Of a DNA stretch of 64,000 nucleotides, positions 577-59,787 are shown piece after piece. The stretch is from Dehalococcoidia bacterium. Lineage in GTDB: Bacteria > Chloroflexota > Dehalococcoidia > Dehalococcoidales > BS750m-G39. Under the pieces are notes generated by a model that worked only from the letters and a program-made list of their open reading frames with translations, did not search any database and was not told the origin of the DNA. The number at the start of each line of letters is the position of its first letter. Within the stretch, counting starts at the first letter, position 1. A program made the position numbers and the translations under genes. The stretch is from contig JAUWIX010000001.1 of the NCBI GenBank assembly GCA_030608005.1, positions 14,375-78,374 of the forward strand, in the 5' to 3' direction.

Positions 577-610
577 ATGAGCTTTGCCTTTATAAGGATT
601 AAATGTTAGA

Positions 611-698
611 GGAGAGTCAAAGAGAGGCGAAACCTCTCTTACATAATCAATTCCCCTTCCCCTTATCAAGGGGAAGGGGATAAAGGGGATGGGGTTAC
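611..698 (+). repeat. composite intergenic repeat (hairpin A + spacer + hairpin B + G-rich tail), forward orientation
   Basis: Hairpin A is agagagg-cgaaa-cctctct (621-639). Hairpin B is ccccttcccc-ttatcaa-ggggaagggg (653-679). The tail is ataaaggggatggggttac. The same architecture recurs at 10 or more other loci. Confidence 0.85.
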
Positions 699-723
699 TA
701 ACTAAAACCCTAAAGGAGACTAA

Positions 724-2065: not shown

Positions 2066-2108
2066 TAAGAAAGATATTTAATTAGGCGAGTATTCTTGCA
2101 AGGAAGTT

Positions 2109-2224
2109 TTAGAGGGGTACAGTCCCGCTAAAGAAATTATCTTCCCCTTAACAAGGGGAAGGGGATAAAGCAGGTTCCCAGGAAAATCAAAGATTTTTCT
2201 GGGTGCATAAAGGGGATAGGGTTC
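2109..2224 (+). repeat. composite intergenic repeat, forward, with an extra inserted hairpin
   Basis: Hairpin B is cttcccc-ttaacaa-ggggaag (2141-2162). An extra inverted repeat cccaggaaaatc/gatttttctggg lies at 2177-2203. The tail ataaaggggatagggttc ends 3 nt before the dapF ATG. Confidence 0.75.
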
Positions 2225-2227
2225 AAT

Positions 2228-3103
2228 ATGAATTTTACCAAGGTACAGGGTGCAGGAAACGATTTTATACTGGTAGAGGGCGGTGAAGCACAGCGTGATT
2301 GGTCGCAGGTGGCGATAGCTATGTGCGACCGCCACTTCGGCGTTGGCGCCGACGGTTTGCTACTGGTGCTGCCCTCAAATAATGCTGACTTCCAGATGCG
2401 GGTGTTCAACTCTGATGGCTCCGAGGCTGAGGCTTGTGGCAATGGTTTGAGGTGCTTGGTTAAATATGTTTTACATAAGGGATTGGCTGATAGTAAGGCT
2501 CAACAAATATCAGTTGAAATGATATCGGGGGTGAGGAGTGCCAAGCTTCATACAGTGGAAGGCAAGGTAGCTACGATTCAGATCGGTATGGGAGAACCAA
2601 AATTTGGAGCTGAGGATATTCCAGTAGCGGTAGAGCAGGGTGGAAGTCTAGTTGACATAAAGCCAATAATGGATTATCCAGTTATTGTAGATGGCAGAGA
2701 GCTACTGCTGAACATTGTCTCCATAGGGAATCCGCATGCAGTTTATTTCTGGCAGCACCCGGTATCTGATTTCCCATTGTCCCAATTGGGACCAAAAGTG
2801 GAGGGGCATAAGATATTTCCCAATAAGGTGAATTTTGAGGTAGCTAGGGTGGTGAGCCGAGAGCAAATAGAAGCGCGGGTGTGGGAGAAGGGGGTGGGGG
2901 AAACATTGGCTTGCGGCAGTGGTGCCTGCGCCATAGCTGTTTTAGCCCAGCTCCATGATTATATCCGCAGTAAAGTTGCCATAAAATTACCAGGAGGTAT
3001 ACTGGGTGTGGAGTGGGATGGGGCAGGGGAAGTATTCCTCAGCGGTCCAGCCGAAATAGTATTTAGTGGAGAATGGCCAGATGAAAATGTCAAGACGGGT
3101 TGA
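2228..3103 (+). CDS. dapF: diaminopimelate epimerase
   Basis: N-terminal FTKVQGAGNDFILV and the two catalytic Cys contexts (EACGNG, LACGSGA) are present. Length is 291 aa. Confidence 0.92.
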   Translation: MNFTKVQGAGNDFILVEGGEAQRDWSQVAIAMCDRHFGVGADGLLLVLPSNNADFQMRVFNSDGSEAEACGNGLRCLVKYVLHKGLADSKAQQISVEMISGVRSAKLHTVEGKVATIQIGMGEPKFGAEDIPVAVEQGGSLVDIKPIMDYPVIVDGRELLLNIVSIGNPHAVYFWQHPVSDFPLSQLGPKVEGHKIFPNKVNFEVARVVSREQIEARVWEKGVGETLACGSGACAIAVLAQLHDYIRSKVAIKLPGGILGVEWDGAGEVFLSGPAEIVFSGEWPDENVKTG

Positions 3104-5453: not shown

Positions 5454-5573
5454 AGAGACGCTCTCAAATCAAAATCTAGGGGCATAAAAATTCTTCTGAA
5501 TGGTTCTATTACCTTTATAAGCGATAAGAGACAATTAGCCCCATATTTTTGCCCTTGGTTTTTTTATTTTTAA

Positions 5574-5662
5574 GGGAACCCACCCCCTTAATCCCCCTCC
5601 CTTGATAAGGGAGGGGGAGAGTTTTTTAAGAAGAGGGGGCTAGCGCCCCCTCTTAAACACCC
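5574..5662. repeat. intergenic repeat (reverse tail + hairpin B, followed by a palindromic hairpin A module)
   Basis: The reverse tail ggaacccacccccttaat is followed by ccccctccc-ttgataa-gggaggggg. After that comes aagaggggg-ctagc-gccccctctt plus aaacaccc. Confidence 0.8.
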
Positions 5663-5710
5663 GGTTGGCATAGGCAGGTTATAATTTAACATAACACTCT
5701 GTGATTTAAG

Positions 5711-21348: not shown

Positions 21349-22593
21349 TTATCCCTGTCCAGCCTTCTGCTCCTGTATAAGCTTCTCCCCATACTCAAGC
21401 AGAATTTTGGCTCGCTCTGGAGATACCTTCTTTGATTCCAGGTAGGCTTTTAGGGCATCAAGGGGGGCTATCTCTTCAGCGGTCCATTGCCCCAGCCTGA
21501 GGCGTGCCTCTCGCTTTATATCCTTGGCGATAGTGAAGTAATGAGCCTCTTTCACGGTATTCCTGATATCATTATCTCTGAGCTGACCTTCAATCTCAGC
21601 CGGCAGGCTAATGTTTAGTCGCACTATGGCATCCCTGACTTTGTCTTCCTGTTCAGCAATAGCCCTGAGCACTGTTGATGTTGGTTCAGCATCCTGTGGC
21701 TCAATATTGATATTAACGGTGAGAAAGCGGCGCCCGGTTACCTGGTGGAAGTCAAAGGAGACCCGCCTTTTGCCTGTTTCCTTATCGGACTCAATTTCTA
21801 CCAGATAAAAACCCTTGTCATCTTTCTCCTCGCTGAAATCCAGCCGCTCCAGGCTGCCGGGATAAACAACTGGGGGATTGTTGCTCAAAACCTGGTGTTT
21901 ATGAATATGACCTAGGGCAATGTAATCAAAGGCGGGGTGGGCAACATTGCTCAGCAACAACGCATGCTCCTGTCCTATGGTCATTGACCTCTCTGAGCCT
22001 ACCTTGGCGCCGGAGACCCAGACATGGGCAGCTAGTATGGCTGGCAGTCCAAGGTCAAGTTGTTGAGCTTTGGCAGCGATGATATCAGTTAATGCCTGCT
22101 GCAATCTCTGATTTATCTGGTCAAAGGTAAGGTTTTTAGTCTCTTCTCTGGTTAGCAGAGCACTGCGCCTGAGCCAGGGTAAGGAGACTATTTGAATAGT
22201 CCCGCTACTAGTCGAAATGCGGTGGACTTGGGGACGATTGGAGACATAGATATTTTTAACCGCTAGGGTATCAAAGATTTCAGTAGAAGTAGCCCTGCCG
22301 ATAGCATTAGGCAGGTCATGGTTGCCGATAAGAAGGAAGGTAGGGATGCTACTGATGGAAAGGCGATTAATCCTTTTGGCAAATTCCCGTTGTTGAGTCT
22401 GGCTTGGCTCGCGGCTCTTATAGGCATCACCGCAGAAGAGGACGAGATCTACCCTGTTCTCCACGGCATAATCTACCACCTGGTCAAGGGCTTTTAGAAA
22501 ATCAAGTAGCCGTGATGATAAGCCGGTAGCTGGGTCAAAGCGACCGTAGCTTTCAACGCCAAGGTGAAGGTCAGCAAAGTGGAGAATTTTCAT
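21349..22593 (-). CDS. sbcD: Mre11/SbcD-family nuclease
   Basis: Calcineurin-like phosphoesterase motifs: HFADLHLG, GDAY, GNHD, and GH.H (ALGHIHKH). Confidence 0.88.
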   Translation of the reverse strand: MKILHFADLHLGVESYGRFDPATGLSSRLLDFLKALDQVVDYAVENRVDLVLFCGDAYKSREPSQTQQREFAKRINRLSISSIPTFLLIGNHDLPNAIGRATSTEIFDTLAVKNIYVSNRPQVHRISTSSGTIQIVSLPWLRRSALLTREETKNLTFDQINQRLQQALTDIIAAKAQQLDLGLPAILAAHVWVSGAKVGSERSMTIGQEHALLLSNVAHPAFDYIALGHIHKHQVLSNNPPVVYPGSLERLDFSEEKDDKGFYLVEIESDKETGKRRVSFDFHQVTGRRFLTVNINIEPQDAEPTSTVLRAIAEQEDKVRDAIVRLNISLPAEIEGQLRDNDIRNTVKEAHYFTIAKDIKREARLRLGQWTAEEIAPLDALKAYLESKKVSPERAKILLEYGEKLIQEQKAGQG

Positions 22594-22595
22594 TA

Positions 22596-22686
22596 GGTAA
22601 CCCCATCCCCCTTTATCCCCCTTCCCCTTGATAAGGGGAAGGGGGATGGATATTAAAAAGAGGGGCTACACCCCCCTTAAACTCCC
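22596..22686 (-). repeat. composite intergenic repeat, reverse orientation; its tail abuts the sbcD start
   Basis: ggtaaccccatccccctttat is followed by cccccttcccc-ttgataa-ggggaaggggg. Next comes hairpin A (agagggg-ctaca-cccccct) and then taaactccc. Confidence 0.85.
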
Positions 22687-22694
22687 ACTGTCAG

Positions 22695-27011: not shown

Positions 27012-27130
27012 AGCTCCTAGGCAGCTAATTCTAGCACAGCCAGATTGGCAGAGTAAAGCTATTGTGCTTATTCAATACCTTAGTGACGCCTCAACTCTCT
27101 GCACTTCACCCCCCTTTAAGTTTTTGATTT

Positions 27131-27333
27131 AGGTAACCCTCCCCCTTTATCCCCCTCCATTAGATAAGGGAGGGGGAATTGGTTATGTTAGAGGGACTTC
27201 GTCCCCCTAAGACTCCCTATAATATATTTAGAGGCTTCGTCTCTCTTGGGCTCTCTATTCTCTGGGGTGTTTAAGAGGGGCGCTAGCCCCTCTTAAACAA
27301 AATCTTCCCCCTTCCCCTCCAGGGGAAGGGGGT
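27131..27333. repeat. cluster of repeat modules (2 hairpin-B and 3 hairpin-A modules)
   Basis: Reverse tail plus B occupies 27131-27176. The A modules are tagaggga-cttc-gtcccccta, a gaggcttcgtctctc module, and gtttaagagggg-cgctag-cccctcttaaac. A forward B (ccccttcccc-tcca-ggggaagggg) and a short tail follow. Confidence 0.85.
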
Positions 27334-27401
27334 CAATGCCAGAGAGAAACGAAATGATAATCTGTGTCACTAATCTATCTGAACTAGCTCACATGAAAGC
27401 C

Positions 27402-27767: not shown

Positions 27768-27787
27768 TTGTCTCTTATTAATAACCT

Positions 27788-27930
27788 AGTAACCCCATCC
27801 CCTTTATCCCCTTCCCCTTGATAAGGGGAAGGGGAAATGATTCTATGAAGAGAGGCGAAGCCCCCTCTCTTCTATACTCCCCCTTCCCTTAACAAATTAC
27901 GAAGGGAAGGGGGTCAGGGGGATAGGTTCC
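27788..27930. repeat. two repeat elements head to head (reverse tail+B, then forward A-B-tail)
   Basis: agtaaccccatcccctttat is followed by ccccttcccc-ttgataa-ggggaagggg. Next comes aagagagg-cgaag-ccccctctctt. The last modules are cccccttccc...gggaaggggg and tcagggggataggttcc. Confidence 0.85.
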
Positions 27931-44504: not shown

Positions 44505-44541
44505 ATGTTATTAATTTACCTCACCTGCTTTAGGTTTTATC

Positions 44542-44790
44542 AGGTAACCCCATCCCCCTTTATCCCCCTTCCCCTTGATAAGGGGAAGGGGGAAATTCTT
44601 GTAAGAGGGACTTCGTCCCTCTAGAACTCCCCATAATATTTGAGGCTTCGCCTCTCTTGGACTCTTTTTTTCTTCTCCTTAAAAGGAGAGGGGGGAAGAG
44701 ATTTTAGAGAGGGACAAAGCCCCTCTCTTACCTGCACTCCCCCTTCCCTTTAAGAAATAATAAGGGAAGGGGGCCAGGGGGATAGGTTTC
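44542..44790. repeat. cluster of repeat modules; its first ~124 nt are a copy of the 27131-27256 composite
   Basis: Reverse tail plus B (ccccttcccc-ttgataa-ggggaagggg) comes first. A modules follow (agaggga-cttc-gtccctct; gaggcttcgcctctc; agagaggg-acaaa-gcccctctct). A forward B (ccccttccc...gggaagggg) and the tail ccagggggataggtttc end the cluster. Confidence 0.85.
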
Positions 44791-44862
44791 TAAACAATCT
44801 CTAACTAGCTCATGAGCTATTGCTAGAGTTAAGGCTCAGGTGATATAATTCGGTATACTTAT

Positions 44863-49601: not shown

Positions 49602-49631
49602 AAGACAATATTTTTAACAGCGAGGTGGATG

Positions 49632-50807
49632 ATGAAGCTAGTAGTAATAGGTTTTGGTCAGTGTGGGTGCAACATTGCTGATGAATTTTATGCCATTAAC
49701 AACCATGCTAAATCAATTTTTAATCGTAAGATTGAGATCTTAACCGATGCTTTTGCCATTAACACCGATGAGGCGGACTTAGGTGGTTTTAGGCATATTC
49801 CTAAGGATAGACACCATAGGATTGTGATTGGCGGTGTGAGAACCTTCGGGCATGGAGTTGGCAAAATGAATGTCGATGGTGCCAAGATTATTAAAGAAAG
49901 TTACACGGTTATCACTGATAATATTTTGGAGTCAAGAAAATTTCATGAGACCGATGGAGTTCTAGCCATAGCCAGTGGAAGCGGGGGCACCGGGTCTGGA
50001 GCAATTGGTTGGGCAATAAAGAAACTTAAGGAGAGGATAGAGAAACCAGTTTACGCCGCAGTAGTTCTCCCCTTTGGATATGAAGAAAACGGGGTTACTT
50101 CCTATGCAATAACCAACACTGCCACCTGTCTCAAGACAGTAAACCAATATGCTGATGCTGTGTTCTTGCTTGATAATGAACGGTTTGCCAGAAGGGGCTA
50201 CAGCTTCGCCCGAAATCTGCACCAAATAAATCTCGAATTCGTCAACAATTTCTATGACCTTTTCTGCGCCGGGGAGGAGAGAAGACCGCAATACCTAGGA
50301 AGCAAAGTGATAGATGCAGGAGATATTAAACAGACACTTGAAGGCATTTCCTCCATTGGCAGGGGGCAGATTGACCTTGCCACCTTTTATCGCTGGAGTA
50401 AGGAGCATTTTCGGGAAGAAGCAAGGGAAAGTAGCGCAGTAGCTGGAGCCTTAGATAAAGCCATGAATAACCTGTCTGTGTCAATTGACTTAAAGGATGC
50501 CAGGAAGATTCTGGTTCTACTCACTGCTCAGAAAGGGGTTATTACCCTGAATGCCTTGGAAGAGGTCGCTACTCTGTTACAAGAGAGGGCTCCTAGAGCT
50601 GTAATAAGAATGGGTGATTATCCTAGAAGGGGAAAGGAGATCTCTCTAACTTTAGTTGCTTCCAGCTTAGCCAAAGTGGTCAGGGTAGAGAATCTATATC
50701 TTCAAGCTAAAGATTTATTTAAACAGCAGGCGAAGCTAAATAGAGAAACCCAAGAGCAAATTCAACAGTTGCATCAGACTGGCAAGGAGCTTCCCAGCTT
50801 GGATTAA
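49632..50807 (+). CDS. tubulin/FtsZ-superfamily GTPase, CetZ/tubulin-like, paralog 1
   Basis: T1 GFGQCG, GHGVG, T4 SGGTGSG, LPFGYEE, LLDNERF, T7-like VIDAGDIKQTL, and RMGDYPRRG. The helical tail ends in KELPSLD. I chose the ATG at 49632 by alignment with paralog 2 (GAGGTG-N4-ATGAAG). The ORF track starts at 49629. Confidence 0.85.
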   Translation: MKLVVIGFGQCGCNIADEFYAINNHAKSIFNRKIEILTDAFAINTDEADLGGFRHIPKDRHHRIVIGGVRTFGHGVGKMNVDGAKIIKESYTVITDNILESRKFHETDGVLAIASGSGGTGSGAIGWAIKKLKERIEKPVYAAVVLPFGYEENGVTSYAITNTATCLKTVNQYADAVFLLDNERFARRGYSFARNLHQINLEFVNNFYDLFCAGEERRPQYLGSKVIDAGDIKQTLEGISSIGRGQIDLATFYRWSKEHFREEARESSAVAGALDKAMNNLSVSIDLKDARKILVLLTAQKGVITLNALEEVATLLQERAPRAVIRMGDYPRRGKEISLTLVASSLAKVVRVENLYLQAKDLFKQQAKLNRETQEQIQQLHQTGKELPSLD

Positions 50808-50873: not shown

Positions 50874-52049
50874 ATGAAGTTAGTGGTTGTGGGTCTTGGA
50901 CAATGCGGCGACAGGATTGCTGATGAGTTTGCCCGACTAAATAGAAGGGCACGTAGTCAGCGCGGGGTTGAGATAATTACCGGTGCCTTCGCTGTAAACA
51001 CTGATGCCGCTGACTTAAGTGGGCTACAAACTATAAAAGCTGATTACCAGCATAGAATCCTCATCGGAACTCGAAGGACCGGGGGCCATGGTGTAGGTAA
51101 AATAAATGAGCTGGGGGCTGAAATAGCCAAAGAGGACAGCGATAAGATTATAGATGCCATAAGAACAGCCCAGCGCTTCTTTGAGACCGATGCCTTCTTA
51201 TTGGTCGCCGGTGCTGCCGGCGGCACTGGCTCAGGGGGAATACCGATAGTTGCCCAGATGATAAGGGAGCGCTATGTGTCTAAGCCAATCTATGCCCTGA
51301 CTATTCTCCCCTTCGCTCATGAAGAGGAAACTGAGGAAAGAACTGTTTATAATTCAGCCACTTGCCTTAAGTCCCTCTATCCAGAGGTCGATGCCGTCTT
51401 TCTGGCTGACAATCAAAGGTATATCGGCAAGGACTTCTCGCTTACAAATAACCTATCTAAGATCAATACCTTAATAGTTGACTCATTCTACAACTTGCTC
51501 TGCGCTGGTGAAGAGACAAAACGCAAGCATATTGGGGCAAGGACGGTTGATGCCGGAGACATAATACAGACTTTGGTAGGCTGGACAGTAATAGGCTATG
51601 GCAAATCACCATTGCCTATCTTCAGGTGGTTTCCCTTCTTCGGAAGAAACTTCATAAAGAAGAGTATTGAAACTCACCGAGGAATCCGGGCCATGGATGA
51701 AGCCATAAGTGAGCTGTCAGCTAAATGCATTCCTTCGGATTCAGGTAGAGCCCTATACCTCGTCTCGGCACCACCTAGAGACATGAATATGGACCTGGTT
51801 AAGGACCTGGGAAATTATCTGAAAGATATAGCTCCAGAGGCAGTGATAAGGAACGGCGATTATCCCAGGCAAAAGAGCTTGATTGATGTAACCCTAATTC
51901 TGTCTGAGCTTAATATTGTGGATAAGGTAAAGGGGTACTATAACAAGGCAAGCGGCGTTGTTCACGAGCTTAAAGGAAGGCGAGACGAGTTCGAGCGCAA
52001 ACTTAGAGAAATAGAGGAGGCATCAAAGGACCTACCCTCATTAATATAA
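50874..52049 (+). CDS. tubulin/FtsZ-superfamily GTPase, CetZ/tubulin-like, paralog 2
   Basis: T1 GLGQCG, GHGVG, T4 AGGTGSG, LPFAHEE, LADNQRY, T7-like TVDAGDIIQTL, and RNGDYPRQK. The helical tail ends in KDLPSLI. Confidence 0.85.
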   Translation: MKLVVVGLGQCGDRIADEFARLNRRARSQRGVEIITGAFAVNTDAADLSGLQTIKADYQHRILIGTRRTGGHGVGKINELGAEIAKEDSDKIIDAIRTAQRFFETDAFLLVAGAAGGTGSGGIPIVAQMIRERYVSKPIYALTILPFAHEEETEERTVYNSATCLKSLYPEVDAVFLADNQRYIGKDFSLTNNLSKINTLIVDSFYNLLCAGEETKRKHIGARTVDAGDIIQTLVGWTVIGYGKSPLPIFRWFPFFGRNFIKKSIETHRGIRAMDEAISELSAKCIPSDSGRALYLVSAPPRDMNMDLVKDLGNYLKDIAPEAVIRNGDYPRQKSLIDVTLILSELNIVDKVKGYYNKASGVVHELKGRRDEFERKLREIEEASKDLPSLI

Positions 52050-54094: not shown

Positions 54095-54116
54095 TATACC
54101 GAGACTGCTTATTTCA

Positions 54117-54203
54117 GGTAGCTTGAAGGGGCAAAGCCCCTTCGAAACCTATTCCTTCTTCCTCTCCTTTGAAGAGAGGAGGATAAAGGGGGTGAGGTTG
54201 AAC
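54117..54203 (+). repeat. composite intergenic repeat, forward, GGTAG-TTGAAGGGG subfamily
   Basis: Hairpin A is gaagggg-caaa-gccccttc. Hairpin B is cctctcc-tttgaag-agaggagg. The tail is ataaagggggtgaggttgaac. The ORF-track recR start at 54123 lies inside this repeat. Confidence 0.85.
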
Positions 54204-54212
54204 CAGAGTCTC

Positions 54213-54809
54213 ATGCCTACCGCCGAAGCGGTATATAAGCTTATCCAGGAACTAAACAAACTGCCTGGCATCGGACCAAAAAGCGCCCAGCGGCTTGCCT
54301 ACCATCTGCTCCGAACTCCAGAAGAGCAAACCAAGCTCCTAGCTGACGCCATACTATTGGTAAAGCAAAAGACCAAGCTGTGCTCCGTTTGTTTTAATAT
54401 TACAGACTCCGACCCCTGCCTCATCTGCTGCAGCGACCAACGAGACCATAGCAAGATTTGCATTGTGGAACAACCCCAGGACATCGTGGCTCTGGAGCAT
54501 ACCAAAACCTATAACGGGCGTTATCATGTGCTCCACGGCGCCATCTCGCCCACCGAAGGAGTAGGAGCTGACGATATAAGAATCAAAGAGCTTATGAAGC
54601 GGTTACAGGGTGGCTCAATAAGTGAAGTCATCCTGGCTACCAACCCCAATCTTGAGGGGGAACAAACCGCTATGTATCTAAATAAGCTGATTTCACCCCT
54701 GGGCATCAGGGTTACCCGCCTTGCCCGGGGACTCCCCTTCGGCACCGAACTGGAATATGCCGACGATGTTACCCTCACCAGAGCCATTGAGGGAAGACAA
54801 GAGTTTTAG
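54213..54809 (+). CDS. recR: recombination protein RecR
   Basis: [21 protein letters not shown] helix-hairpin-helix motif, a C4 Zn finger C..C....D...C..C, and a Toprim domain. The ATG at 54213 (MPTAEAVY) is the start I accept. Confidence 0.92.
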
Positions 54810-55165: not shown

Positions 55166-55221
55166 AAAGTAGTTGAAATGTCCAAGCCCTGAAACTACCA
55201 GACTTAGACCGTAATAAAAAG
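55166..55221 (+). pseudogene. orphan, decayed copy (A) of the recO 5' end
   Basis: aaAGTAGttgaaATGTCCAAGCCCTGAAACTACCAGACTTAGACC aligns with aaAGTAGcaaaaATGTCTAAGCCCCGGAATTATCAGACTGAAGCA at 56689. It contains two in-frame stops. Confidence 0.8.
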
Positions 55222-55308
55222 GGTAGATTGAAGGGGCTTCGCCCCTTCAAAACCCATACTCCCCCCTCTCCTTTCAAGGAGGGGAGGATAAAGGGGGAGA
55301 GGTTCAAC
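55222..55308 (+). repeat. composite intergenic repeat, forward, GGTAGATTGAAGGGG subfamily
   Basis: Hairpin A is gaagggg-cttc-gccccttc. Hairpin B is cccctctcc-tttcaa-ggaggggagg. The tail is ataaagggggagaggttcaac. It is about 90% identical to the copy at 55948-56034. Confidence 0.88.
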
Positions 55309-55326
55309 TTTAAGCGGAGAATAATA

Positions 55327-55881
55327 GTGATATTAGAGTATAAGGAAGATATAAGCTCAGATTTTGAAGGAACGATTATTGATATCGAGACTGTTGGGGA
55401 ATTTAACGGGCAGTACCGAGGCACCCATGATTCGAGGGAATATCAGTATATGCAGCAGGTCATCTTTGGATTTATTAATCGGCAAGGTCTTCACATATCA
55501 TGTGCAAAGGGTATGGAAGCGATTGCTGAACTAAACGAAAAAGCAGAAAAGCTCATAGATCTATTACAAAGACCTTTCTATGCGTTCCAAAGTGAGTTTG
55601 AAAGAGGTGTTTTGTTTCACCAGCTTGGTAAAAGGATTGATTTCGATGGCGAACTACAATGTTATAGAGGAGAATCAAAAGGAAAGGCGAGAACTGAATT
55701 AGATATCCCTAATTATGGTGATCCTTTTAATGATGTGGGTAAACTATGCATGCAAGCTTGGTTAAGGGGAGAATTTGATAAAGCAATAGCACATAACAGA
55801 GCTTGCCTCTTAAAAGAAAGGGATATTTTGATAAAAAGAGGATTTAGAAAACCAAAGGACTTAAAATTTGTTCCAGAATAG
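55327..55881 (+). CDS. RNase H-like / DEDD-type exonuclease-fold protein (cassette 1 cargo)
   Basis: About 184 aa from GTG 55327 (GGAGA Shine-Dalgarno 6 nt upstream). GTIIDIETVG, FYAFQSEFERGVL and AIAHNRACLLKE resemble the three exo motifs of YprB/RNase_H_2-type proteins. The ORF-track start at 55228 lies in the repeat. Confidence 0.5.
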   Translation: MILEYKEDISSDFEGTIIDIETVGEFNGQYRGTHDSREYQYMQQVIFGFINRQGLHISCAKGMEAIAELNEKAEKLIDLLQRPFYAFQSEFERGVLFHQLGKRIDFDGELQCYRGESKGKARTELDIPNYGDPFNDVGKLCMQAWLRGEFDKAIAHNRACLLKERDILIKRGFRKPKDLKFVPE

Positions 55882-55947
55882 TAGTAAAAATGTCCAAACC
55901 AAGAAATTACCAAACAGAAGCTATCATTAAAAGGTTGTTTATCAAAA
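55878..55947 (+). pseudogene. orphan copy (B) of the recO 5' end; encodes the identical first 13 residues
   Basis: ATGTCCAAACCAAGAAATTACCAAACAGAAGCTATCATT encodes MSKPRNYQTEAII, the same peptide as recO codons 1-13. Nine codons differ, all synonymously. The reading frame then runs into the repeat and stops at 55950-55952. Confidence 0.85.
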
Positions 55948-56034
55948 GGTAGATTGAAGGGGCTTCGCCCCTTCAAAACCTATACTTTCCCCTCTCCTTT
56001 CAAGGAGAGGGGAATAAAGGGGGAGAGGTTCAAT
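55948..56034 (+). repeat. composite intergenic repeat, forward, GGTAGATTGAAGGGG subfamily
   Basis: Hairpin A is gaagggg-cttc-gccccttc. Hairpin B is cccctctcc-tttcaa-ggagagggg. The tail is aataaagggggagaggttcaat. Confidence 0.88.
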
Positions 56035-59677: not shown

Positions 59678-59693
59678 GATAAAGAAAAACTAT

Positions 59694-59780
59694 AAGGAGA
59701 GTCAAAGAGAAGCGAAGCCTCTCTTATAAAACCCATTCCCCTCCCTTATAAGGGAGGGGAATAAAGGGGGAGGGTTGGTA
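59694..59780 (+). repeat. composite intergenic repeat, forward; its tail ends 7 nt before the serS ATG
   Basis: aggagagtcaaagagaagcgaagcctctctt is followed by ataaaacccatt. Hairpin B is cccctccc-ttataa-gggagggg. The tail is aataaagggggagggttggtaa. The 5' part is nearly identical to 611-640. Confidence 0.88.
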
Positions 59781-59787
59781 AACTATT

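Follow-up and report, generated by a model that had tools for sequence, protein, structure and literature searches.

An interspersed repeat of Dehalococcoidales with a purine tail that may provide ribosome-binding sites to downstream genes

Positions 22594-22645 of the window, as we call the whole 64-kb stretch of DNA analyzed, make up the 3' half of a copy of a ~90-nt repeat, abundant among uncultured Dehalococcoidales. Comparison of its copies indicates that the conserved feature of the repeat is the purine tail at its 3' end, not the four-tract G motif that the tail forms together with one arm of the adjacent hairpin. Donation of ribosome-binding sites by the tail is supported by the sequences. 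We consider it rather probable that the tail acts as a Shine-Dalgarno sequence, with hairpin B of the element folding first and the four-tract motif arising as a by-product.

The repeat family and its copies in the window

The repeat is modular and interspersed. From 5' to 3' it consists of a GGGRGT motif, a GC-rich hairpin A, an AT-rich spacer, hairpin B, which is a perfect stem of a pyrimidine arm and a purine arm, and a single-stranded purine tail with the consensus ATAAAGGGGG(T/A)(G/T)RGGT. About 15 copies were found in the window with an nhmmer family model and an inventory (Table 1). In 1.18 Mb of Dehalococcoidales contigs there were 355 non-overlapping matches, distributed over more than 190 contigs whose labels are nearly all Dehalococcoidales or Dehalococcoidia. 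The host of the window was assigned through neighbors of 75-90% identity that carry the label Dehalococcoidales. The sequence GGGGAAGGGG occurs 12 times in the window, compared to 0.37 occurrences expected, and a 27-mer of the focal copy occurs twice, compared to 0 expected; we are therefore dealing with a repeat and not with chance. Flanks of copies contain further repeat copies. Both hairpins were recovered by RNAalifold with compensatory changes in 13 of the 15 predicted pairs, and the stems are 96-97% Watson-Crick paired (233 unique copies).

Table 1. Features of the focal repeat copy and other copies of the repeat in the window
Feature	Position	Strand	Evidence or remark
Complete focal repeat copy	22597..22689	-	E 3e-24 with the nhmmer family model; predicted RNA fold of -49.9 kcal/mol (z -2.97)
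5' motif AGTGGGAGTTT, Shine-Dalgarno-like (family consensus GGGRGT)	22679..22689	-	conserved alignment columns, flank listing
Hairpin A, AAGGGGGG-TGT-AGCCCCTCTT then TTTAATAT	22658..22678	-	terminator-like match; RNAalifold stem with compensatory changes
Hairpin B, left arm TCCCCCTTCCCCTT (pyrimidine), loop ATC, right arm AAGGGGAAGGGGGA (purine)	22616..22646	-	~-27.8 kcal/mol
Tail TAAAGGGGGATGGGGTTAC, single-stranded Shine-Dalgarno-like purine tract	22597..22615	-	anti-Shine-Dalgarno duplex -12.1 kcal/mol; kept upstream of sbcD in orthologues
Four-tract G-quadruplex motif GGGGAAGGGGGATAAAGGGGGATGGGG, hairpin B right arm plus tail	22601..22627	-	regular-expression scan, G4Hunter 2.56; segment alone -27.6 kcal/mol, 4-layer
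sbcD-type metallophosphoesterase gene (tail as putative ribosome-binding region)	21349..22593	-	Pfam Metallophos 1e-13
Full copy, GGGG subfamily	606..705	+	quadruplex motif 670-694
Copy upstream of dapF, nested ~36-nt hairpin inserted at ATAAA linker	2096..2225	+	last tail G-run 6 nt before ATG 2228
Full copy, antisense to flanking genes	5566..5666	-	GGG-type motif 5579-5601
Two copies head to head, tails outward	27126-27224 (full); 27259-27336 (without tail)	-; +	
Head-to-head doublet, hairpin A in common	27785-27875; 27847-27930	-; +	quadruplex motif 27793-27817 in the first
Three-copy cluster	44537-44638; 44642-44697 (partial); 44700-44797	-; +; +	quadruplex motif 44548-44574 in the first
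Copy with tail AAAGGGGGTGAGG abutting recR TTG start	54113..54203	+	L014 orthologous site element-free
Full copy, GGAGGGGAGG subfamily, without canonical quadruplex motif	55214..55309	+	
Full copy, GGAGAGGGG subfamily, without canonical quadruplex motif	55945..56034	+	
Copy upstream of serS, GGG-type motif 59752-59774	59691..59786	+	G-run ends 13 nt before ATG 59788

The focal copy is located between the stop codon of a 99-aa ORF (22695) and the sbcD start codon (ATG 22593). The arms of its hairpin B (22615-22629 and 22633-22647) form 15 bp with 100% complementarity. The identities of sbcD, dapF and serS were confirmed by Pfam and their N-termini agree with those of orthologues; the SbcD N-terminus, MKILHFADLHLG, is common to ~75 orthologues. 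Gene calls were made with a crude longest-ORF heuristic. TTG-initiated ORFs wrongly extended into elements were observed, for example at 54123 and 55228.

In the focal copy, hairpin A looks by sequence like an intrinsic terminator. A general terminator role was rejected: the T-tract after hairpin A is absent from many other copies. A putative promoter suggested by visual inspection of the focal copy's antisense strand (TTGATA-17-TATTAA) was also discarded, being absent from the promoter scan and not conserved in other copies.

At the gathering threshold, an Rfam search of the window returned three tRNAs only and no family for the repeat, and a search of 19 related loci (130 kb with dozens of copies) returned one tRNA only. 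Matches at a permissive threshold were chance matches to microRNA hairpins and a sub-threshold alignment with GA-cis, a family to which the repeat was not assigned. The repeat family was not found described in the literature on Dehalococcoidia repeats, MITEs and GA-cis.

The tail and translation starts

Complementarity of the tails to 16S rRNA was calculated with a 3' end assumed to be canonical (GAUCACCUCCUUUCU), the host's own 16S lying outside the window. The commonest tail, AAAGGGGGTGA, forms 11 contiguous pairs with this sequence at -17.0 kcal/mol, and the sbcD tail is also complementary to it (Table 1). For reference, the duplex of a perfect 13-mer has -20.7 kcal/mol and those of ordinary window genes have -10 to -17 kcal/mol. 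Shine-Dalgarno sequences made of G-runs are also present at window genes without the element.

The tails are positioned as expected for Shine-Dalgarno sequences (~4-10 nt upstream of the start codon) at sbcD (7 nt from the end of the last G-run to the ATG), dapF (6 nt) and recR (5 nt); the serS spacing of 13 nt is long for a Shine-Dalgarno sequence and marginal. A preliminary description of this DNA had pointed out that no other purine-rich candidate lies between the element and the start codons of sbcD, dapF and serS, and this holds for all three genes. Across the family, tail-to-start distances peak at 3-9 nt, with sbcD, dnaJ, der, dapF, serS, apgM, proC and recR among the genes concerned. 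Of 140 tail ends, 16 are at most 10 nt from a start, compared to 3 of 107 ends on the left side (Fisher p = 0.014). The distance to a start exceeds 25 nt in about 60% of sense copies and, therefore, most copies are not donors of ribosome-binding sites.

The orientation test suggested in the preliminary description showed that the placement of the element with respect to genes is strongly non-random. After removal of duplicate insertion sites by flanking gene family, 91 sense and 32 antisense copies were counted in gaps between co-directional genes (p ~1e-7), and the median distance to the downstream start is 32 nt for sense and 162 nt for antisense copies. The window inventory, with 10 of 13 tails pointing at the start of the adjacent gene, agrees with the earlier estimate of about 10 of 14. 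As a rule the element is sense-oriented and occupies short co-directional gaps, so that transcription would make it part of an intercistronic region or a 5' leader.

Leaders of 71 sbcD orthologues were compared. In most of them a G-run is found 5-8 nt before the start codon, including leaders that lack both hairpins; the last G-run is 7-8 nt before ATG starts in 24 leaders and 5-6 nt before TTG starts in 12. An A[1-3]G[4+] sequence at most 45 nt from the start is present in 51 of the 71, hairpin-free leaders included. The G-rich tail is retained also in leaders that have lost hairpin B and the remaining tracts, and it is kept where another repeat, or a leader carrying TGGTATAAT, replaces the hairpins. 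At the recR site of one related locus (L014) there is no element, and a canonical AGGAGAG followed, after 6 nt, by TTG is found at the position where the window has the tail. At the same site in locus L046 the element is expanded.

We propose that the tail serves as the Shine-Dalgarno sequence of the downstream gene, as complementarity to 16S rRNA, spacing to the start codon and conservation suggest. Hairpin B would be the first to fold during transcription, locking away its left arm, a pyrimidine, anti-Shine-Dalgarno-like sequence that would otherwise be free to pair with the tail. Hairpins A and B would then be stable structures just upstream of the ribosome-binding site, where they could shield it from the sequence on that side, impede ribonucleases or form a physical barrier.

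The four-tract G motif

Four window copies contain the sequence GGGG-AA-GGGG(G)-ATAAA-GGGG(G)-AT-GGGG, two tracts of which are the right arm of the perfect 15-bp hairpin. A regular-expression scan (loops of at most 7 nt) located these motifs at the positions given in Table 1. The preliminary description had the motifs at 670-694 and 22601-22627 exactly right; those it had placed at 27791-27815 and 44548-44575 were 1-2 nt off. The scan also found the GGG-type variant that had been reported upstream of serS (+ strand), as well as a further one, that of the antisense copy at 5566..5666, which had gone unmentioned. Thus, the canonical motif (four runs of at least 3 G with loops of 1-7 nt) is present in four GGGG and two GGG window copies. 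One other four-tract motif was found in the 64 kb, at 2877-2900 inside the dapF coding sequence. The G4Hunter check that had been suggested gave a score of 2.56 for the four GGGG copies. Tracts 1 and 2 are the 3' arm of the 15-bp hairpin, and hairpin B and the quadruplex are indeed mutually exclusive, as had been stated.

The mRNA of the GGGG subfamily might accordingly toggle between hairpin B, which leaves the tail free, and a four-layer RNA G-quadruplex of the right arm and the tail. In the latter fold the ribosome-binding site would be hidden, or the quadruplex would be an obstacle, making translation dependent on K+ or temperature. With ViennaRNA, the energies of the 4-layer quadruplex (-27.6 to -30.6 kcal/mol) and of hairpin B (-25 to -27.8 kcal/mol) are about equal, and the quadruplex is part of the lowest-energy fold in 3 of the 4 window copies and in 76% of GGGG-subfamily copies. 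G-run lengths of arm and tail covary (5/5, 4/4, 3/3), as matched tracts require, and in 88-98% of all copies the G4Hunter score is 1.5 or higher. Bacterial translation responds, both in vitro and in E. coli, to quadruplexes and hairpins placed in 5' leaders (PMC11087576).

However, the motif is not conserved across the family or at orthologous sites. Among unselected copies, i.e. those not picked by the search pattern, four GGGG tracts are present in only 6-9% and four GGG tracts in 30-35%; in the sbcD leaders, four GGGG runs are found in just 5 of 71 and four GGG runs in 24 of 71. The motif is canonical in the CCCCTTCCCC subfamily only, and the dominant subfamily (arm GGAGAGGGGG, tail GGGGGTGAGG) allows only a bulged or two-layer quadruplex. 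A three-layer quadruplex has -9.6 kcal/mol compared to -22 to -24 kcal/mol for the hairpin, which is thus favored by more than 12 kcal/mol, and a quadruplex appears in the predicted lowest-energy fold of 6-7% of unselected copies. Moreover, the C-rich arm is transcribed first and is only 3 nt away, so that the hairpin should form first and trap the sequence. Both arms precede the tail in transcription, and kinetics should therefore be on the side of the hairpin. Finally, copies in which a hairpin is inserted between arm and tail persist before dapF and sbcD. The dapF copy of the window has no four-tract motif because the nested hairpin, flanked by ATAAAG on both sides, separates arm from tail.

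On these grounds a quadruplex toggle in the GGGG subfamily appears very unlikely, and a general mechanism of this kind is unlikely. The part of the preliminary description that stands is a Shine-Dalgarno-like sequence placed by the element at the position of the ribosome-binding site; a general quadruplex mechanism is not supported. The four-tract motif results from the G-rich, Shine-Dalgarno-like character of both tail and right arm and is probably a by-product, not a selected feature.

Covariation of the tail with hairpin B

The tail and the right arm of hairpin B have a mirror identity of 0.85 compared to 0.77 for permuted partners, and none of 1000 permutations reached the observed value. 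A simple model of a hairpin plus a ribosome-binding site does not predict this covariation. Given this covariation, and the ability of the tail to pair with the left arm of hairpin B (-15.5 kcal/mol), tail and hairpin are not independent.

One way to account for the covariation is a switch of helices, in which the left arm pairs either with the right arm, leaving the tail free and translation on, or with the tail, sequestering the ribosome-binding site and turning translation off. The right arm would neutralize the left arm, and the balance would be shifted by some factor, for instance temperature, a protein, a small RNA or a ribosome upstream. A perfect 11-nt inverted repeat is formed in the focal copy by CCATCCCCCTT and AAGGGGGATGG of the tail. 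With the right arm blocked, the mean pairing energy of left arm and tail in 220 copies is the -15.5 kcal/mol given above, compared to -14.9 +/- 0.10 with tails of other copies and -11.3 with shuffled ones. The margin over permuted tails is, however, small (0.6 kcal/mol), and hairpin B is ~5 kcal/mol more stable (-20.8 vs -15.5), has a 3-nt loop and forms first. In both the lowest-energy and the centroid folds the right arm is paired in hairpin B and the first G-run of the tail is unpaired; the sequestered ground state of an RNA thermometer or riboregulator is thus not predicted. No ligand or factor is known for such a switch, and the similarity of arm and tail may simply reflect tandem duplication of AAGGGGGAT. 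We regard this exchange of helices as decidedly unlikely.

The purine right arm and the tail can also be viewed as a mirror repeat. In DNA that is single-stranded or supercoiled, the tail might fold onto the hairpin B stem to give an intramolecular triple helix of the purine motif (H-DNA), with effects on replication, transcription or mobility of the element. The arm-tail identity rises to 0.94 when T opposite A is accepted (G.G-C, A.A-T and T.A-T triads; 0.83 for permuted partners), and the linker is constant at 3-5 nt. These values come from only about six independent subfamilies, and the near-symmetric G/A sequence blurs the distinction between mirror and direct repeats. Purine-motif triplexes largely exclude RNA and, therefore, a triplex would leave the link to translation starts unexplained. 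A triplex is highly improbable.

The covariation may, alternatively, reflect a selected three-way competition, in which right arm and tail compete for pairing with the left arm and, in some subfamilies, can together form a quadruplex. The repeats would then be mobile cassettes carrying a structure-gated ribosome-binding site, which we hold to be unlikely.

Mobility of the element

The tail as a Shine-Dalgarno sequence has also to be weighed against a selfish DNA-level repeat of the REP, BIME or MITE kind, without a selected function in RNA. Sense bias and proximity to starts would then result from an insertion preference, for G-rich Shine-Dalgarno-like targets or for one replication strand, or from the survival of only those insertions that restore a ribosome-binding site. 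The size and copy number (see above) and the absence of the element from the L014 recR site are those of a MITE. Presence and absence differ at orthologous sites, arrays reach ~400 nt, insertions are nested at the ATAAA linker, and head-to-head doublets have hairpin A in common. The left end of the element is Shine-Dalgarno-like too, as expected if it landed after such sequences or inside other tails. In the stems, the excess of G-U over A-C mismatches is not significant (37 vs 23 and 40 vs 29), and the hairpin A loop is found in both orientations, GAA and TTC; for these two reasons the hairpins do not demonstrate a selected RNA structure.

On the other hand, the element has no terminal inverted repeats: one end (GGGAGT...) is not the inverted form of the other (...GGGGTTAC), and the only inverted repeats found are the internal hairpins and the pairing of the left arm with the tail. 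A target-site duplication is not clear; in a single comparison of a filled and an empty site, at recR, Shine-Dalgarno-like sequence was found on both sides and no clean duplication. In the 1.18 Mb of loci we found no long element bracketed by a left and a right half that could be an autonomous parent, and no transposase was seen. Finally, the tail outlasts the rest of the element in sbcD leaders, which argues for selection on the tail. A purely selfish repeat is, in our view, rather unlikely.

Significance

Interspersed bacterial repeats donate promoters, terminators and ribonuclease sites. If the Shine-Dalgarno role of the tail is true, a repeat that ends in a ribosome-binding site and is found at core genes (sbcD, dnaJ, der, dapF, recR, serS) would be a new class of donated signal, spread over an entire uncultured order. 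If the structure-gated reading were true, tunable translation-initiation regions would have been installed before housekeeping genes throughout a bacterial order. Annotation of Dehalococcoidales would be affected: start-codon calls are distorted by TTG ORFs that reach into elements, and predictions of operon boundaries and intergenic RNAs would need to account for the elements. Four-tract G motifs beside their own complementary strand are unusually numerous in these genomes, which would offer a natural setting to examine whether RNA quadruplexes with a built-in competing hairpin are tolerated by bacteria.

Comparison with known systems

Hallmarks of REP/BIME elements are the REP-associated tyrosine transposase (RAYT) and a palindrome that begins, at its 5' end, with a conserved GTAG. 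In our element GTAG is found 5' of hairpin A in some copies only (GGTAGCTTGAAGGGGC), and a RAYT-type transposase is not in evidence. The mosaic structure of REP/BIME is present: the element has its two hairpins, copies are arranged in tandem or head to head, and the tail also occurs in a second repeat type. Like the enterobacterial REP/BIME, the element is short, GC-rich, palindromic and extragenic, occurs as high-copy mosaics of modules and often lies between co-transcribed genes; REP/BIME reportedly act on mRNA as stabilizers or attenuators (PMC3049150). Unlike them, it combines two unrelated hairpins with an asymmetric purine tail, is strongly sense-biased with a 3' end that doubles as a putative ribosome-binding site, and belongs to a clade of Chloroflexota.

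BOX elements of Streptococcus pneumoniae are likewise modular (boxA, boxB, boxC), vary in length by gain of modules, are transcribed as operon extensions and have orientation-dependent effects downstream; they have terminal inverted repeats and target-site duplications, and ORFs formed by them lack good Shine-Dalgarno candidates (PMC3049150). In contrast, our element is without terminal inverted repeats, and the Shine-Dalgarno match of its tail is strong. Further transcribed intergenic repeats with an orientation-dependent effect are the ERIC and Correia elements, of which the latter donate promoters to neighboring genes (PMC3049150). They differ in being palindromes of 100-155 bp with terminal inverted repeats, and in donating promoters or ribonuclease cleavage sites rather than a ribosome-binding site.

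The sub-threshold alignment with Rfam GA-cis (RF02987) extends over the whole element and includes an AGGAGG-like 5' end and a hairpin of the aaaaGGGGCGAAGCCCCuuuu form, but the second hairpin is unlike that of the element. Membership was rejected with 21.1 bits against a gathering score of 34.7 and no match in the 130 kb of related loci. Shine-Dalgarno-sequestering RNA thermometers and riboregulators (ROSE, fourU) resemble the element in that anti-Shine-Dalgarno-like pyrimidines pair with Shine-Dalgarno-like purines and alternative pairing with the real ribosome-binding site is possible. Here, however, the predicted ground state leaves the start-proximal tail unpaired, and the sequestered purines are a decoy ~20 nt further upstream.

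A further comparison is with bacterial 5' leaders in which quadruplexes and hairpins enhance translation (Lee et al. 2024, PMC11087576). There too a bulky structure lies directly upstream of the ribosome-binding site, and the order of hairpin, G-tracts, putative ribosome-binding site and start codon in our element resembles that of the best-performing constructs. Those leaders are engineered, with a quadruplex separate from the ribosome-binding site and no complementary C-rich strand nearby, whereas in the Dehalococcoidales repeat a perfect hairpin locks away one pair of tracts and the other pair is itself the putative ribosome-binding site.

Extent and anatomy of the repeat family

Repeat finding combined with an iterated nhmmer profile identified an element of ~90 nt that is present about 15 times in the 64-kb window. 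When one genome per species was scanned for an exact pattern, more than 114 matches came up, nearly all from metagenome-assembled genomes labelled Dehalococcoidales or Dehalococcoidia, and a profile search of 1.18 Mb, including 80 sbcD-orthologous metagenome loci, recovered 355 non-overlapping copies. Window coding regions share 75–81% DNA identity with the related loci (L numbers below), and SbcD is 75–90% identical to its orthologues there at the protein level, which places the window in an uncultured relative. Pfam supported the identities of the sbcD-type metallophosphoesterase, DapF, SerRS and RecR genes.

Hairpins A and B were both recovered by RNAalifold from 86 diverse copies, with compensatory changes at 13 of the 15 predicted pairs; in 233 unique copies the stems are 96–97% Watson-Crick. 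Subfamilies are distinguished by hairpin B and the tail, and more exist than the three tabulated.

The element is modular. It occurs in tandem arrays, up to ~400 nt long at the recR site of L046, and in head-to-head doublets, where two opposite copies have one common hairpin A and tails pointing outward on both sides. The ATAAA linker that joins the hairpin B right arm to the tail is the exact site at which some copies carry small, unrelated hairpins as insertions; the insert of the window dapF copy, CAGGTTCCCAGGAAAATCAAAGATTTTTCTGGGTGC, has ATAAAG on either side. This precision and these flanks suggest that the linker is a preferred insertion point. A second repeat type, GAGATTGCTTCGCT..GCTCGCAATGACA, bears the same tail: in sbcD leaders this repeat (GAGATTGCTTCGCTnnGCTCGCAATGACA) runs straight into the G-rich tail (GGGCAGGCAGGGGGATAAAGGGGGTAAGGTAGATAAA), and some leaders carry it as 66-nt tandem arrays directly upstream of sbcD. 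Different repeats thus have the tail as a common module. The element has no terminal inverted repeats, and the 1.18 Mb searched contained no autonomous parent element.

The window also contains a tandem pair of tubulin/FtsZ-family paralogues whose C-terminal domain is of the CetZ type (49629-50807 and 50874-52049, plus strand; Pfam Tubulin 2.9e-25 and 3.5e-34, CetZ_C 2.1e-16 and 3.6e-13), each with a repeated segment of ~84 nt upstream (repeat families D5 and D7). Because CetZ counts as an archaeal protein, finding two such genes side by side in a Dehalococcoidales-like bacterium was unexpected.

Components, subfamilies and sites of the repeat element (window coordinates unless a related locus is named)
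Feature	Sequence or context	Position	Strand
Focal copy, 5' segment	AGTGGGAGTTT; 5' of hairpin A		-
Focal copy, hairpin A	AAGGGGGG-TGT-AGCCCCTCTT	22678-22658	-
Focal copy, spacer	TTTAATATCCA; between hairpins A and B		-
Focal copy, hairpin B	TCCCCCTTCCCCTT-ATC-AAGGGGAAGGGGGA	22646-22616	-
Focal copy, tail	TAAAGGGGGATGGGGTTAC; then CTA, then sbcD ATG (22593)	22615-22597	-
Subfamily	left arm CCCCTTCCCC; right arm GGGGAAGGGG; tail GGGGATGGGG		
Commonest subfamily	left arm CCCCCTCTCC; right arm GGAGAGGGGG; tail GGGGGTGAGG		
Subfamily	left arm CCCCCTCCC; right arm GGGAGGGGG; tail GGGGGAGGG		
GGGG-type motif	motif scan	670-694	+
GGGG-type motif	motif scan	22601-22627	-
GGGG-type motif	motif scan	27793-27817	-
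GGGG-type motif	motif scan	44548-44574	-
GGG-type motif	motif scan	59752-59774	+
GGG-type motif	motif scan	5579-5601	-
Head-to-head doublets		27785-27930; L017 2290-2446; L054 7141-7288	
ATAAA-linker insertions	window dapF copy; sbcD leaders of L123, L147, L186	2165-2205 (dapF copy)	
Second-repeat sites	sbcD leaders	L119 2325-2520; L120 778-900; L117, L145, L148, L180	

The tail as a probable ribosome-binding site

Comparative evidence supports a ribosome-binding role for the tail. With one G-U pair included, the commonest tail, AAAGGGGGTGA, is complementary to the canonical 16S 3' end over 11 contiguous pairs (−17.0 kcal/mol), and the sbcD tail pairs with the same end at −12.1 kcal/mol; ordinary window genes have GGAGG or a G-run as Shine-Dalgarno. 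For copies with a same-strand downstream gene (sbcD, dnaJ, der, dapF, serS, apgM, proC and recR among them), tail-to-start distances peak at 3–9 nt. Of 140 tail ends, 16 come to within 10 nt of a start, compared to 3 of 107 left ends. Among 71 sbcD leaders sampled irrespective of repeat presence, a G-run ends 7–8 nt before an ATG start in 24 and 5–6 nt before a TTG start in 12. The tail is kept in leaders where the other repeat replaces the hairpins, and also behind a divergent-gene leader carrying TGGTATAAT, which reads as a putative extended −10 promoter box.

The recR junction points the same way: L014 has no element and reads AGGAGAG, 6 nt, TTG; in the window the element is present, with AAAGGGGGTGAGG immediately adjoining that TTG. 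In L134 and L142 the gene upstream of sbcD (C-terminus ...PPGGKIWK...) runs into right-arm and tail sequence; the junction is ...GAA GGG GGA TAA AGGGGGATAGGGTTACCCAATG, the TAA of GATAAAG serves as stop codon, and the G-run after it is the predicted sbcD Shine-Dalgarno.

Orientation relative to gene starts, a test proposed in the preliminary description, is non-random and favours ribosome-binding-site donation: when distinct flanking gene-family pairs were counted, co-directional gaps contained 91 sense and 32 antisense copies (p about 1e-7). The median distance to the downstream start is 32 nt for sense copies and 162 nt for antisense copies, which are nearer the upstream stop. Mechanical ORF calls at 54123-54809 and 55228-55881 begin at a TTG that belongs to hairpin A (TTGAAGGGGC...), so that the called genes reach into the repeat. 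From the comparison with L014 we judge the tail-abutting TTG at about 54198 to be the true recR start. Starts at these elements are likely to be miscalled when such genomes are annotated automatically.

Quadruplex and hairpin B

Scanning for four G-runs separated by no more than 7 nt confirmed the positions first proposed to within 2 nt, and the proposal that two tracts form one arm of hairpin B was borne out by the focal copy, where this hairpin is a perfect 15-bp one. The sequence GGGGAAGGGG occurs 12 times in the window versus 0.37 expected. The sole non-repeat four-G-tract motif in the window, GGGTGTGGGAGAAGGGGGTGGGGG (2877-2900, plus strand), lies within the dapF coding sequence.

In the ViennaRNA quadruplex model, the energies of the four-layer quadruplex (−27.6 to −30.6 kcal/mol) and hairpin B (−25 to −27.8 kcal/mol) are comparable, so their competition is real in the energy model for the GGGG subfamily alone; the lowest-energy fold includes the quadruplex in three of four window copies. 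Three-layer versions lose (−9.6 versus −22 to −24 kcal/mol). In copies that were not pattern-selected, four GGGG tracts are found in 6% of bystander copies and 9% at sbcD loci, four GGG tracts in 30–35%, and a quadruplex in the lowest-energy fold in 6–7%. The corresponding tract counts for sbcD leaders are 5/71 and 24/71. General G-richness is universal (G4Hunter ≥1.5 in 88–98% of copies). Since the C-rich arm is transcribed earlier, with 3 nt between it and its partner, hairpin B probably forms first, kinetically trapping the right arm. The quadruplex would belong to a single subfamily, with a predicted energy close to that of a kinetically favoured hairpin, and is not a conserved feature. 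Of the roles advanced in the preliminary description, donation of a ribosome-binding site is supported by the comparative evidence; a quadruplex switch is unlikely to be general.

Coupling of the tail to hairpin B

The tail is not independent of hairpin B: in the various subfamilies, tail and right arm mirror each other across the linker (GGGGAAGGGGG-ATAAA-GGGGGATGGGG; GGAGAGGGGG-ATAAA-GGGGGTGAGG; GGGGAGAGGG-ATAAA-GGGTGAGGGG). Mirror identity is 0.85 within copies versus 0.77 ± 0.006 for permuted partners, with 0 of 1000 permutations reaching the observed value, a test that overstates the evidence because only about six subfamilies are independent. The pattern could result from matched quadruplex tracts, from a triplex of the purine motif, or from a tandem duplication (AAGGGGGAT twice) evolving in concert. 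An alternative left arm–tail helix could also be its source: the arms are nearly symmetric, so the tail is a good conventional partner of the left arm as well, with a perfect 11-bp match in the focal copy. Blocking the right arm gives a family-wide left arm–tail fold of −15.5 kcal/mol, compared to −14.9 ± 0.10 with tails of other copies and −11.3 kcal/mol with shuffled tails.

Evidence for RNA-level selection on the element is equivocal. G-U exceeds A-C modestly and not significantly in hairpin A (37 vs 23) and hairpin B (40 vs 29). The hairpin A loop (GAA/TTC; columns 22-38 of A2, the alignment of element copies) appears as GCGAAGC and GCTTCGC, mutual reverse complements, in otherwise similar copies, as if the palindrome were flipping, which points to DNA-level behaviour or an orientation-independent function.

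Comparison with known repeats

No Rfam family reached threshold for the element; the nearest, GA-cis (21.1 bits versus a gathering score of 34.7), has in common a hairpin resembling hairpin A. A literature search found no published description of the repeat family. With its functional roles all read from sequence, the element is best seen as a new version of interspersed repeats of the REP, BIME or BOX type, set apart from them by the asymmetric Shine-Dalgarno-like tail, the strong sense bias and the coupling between tail and hairpin B.
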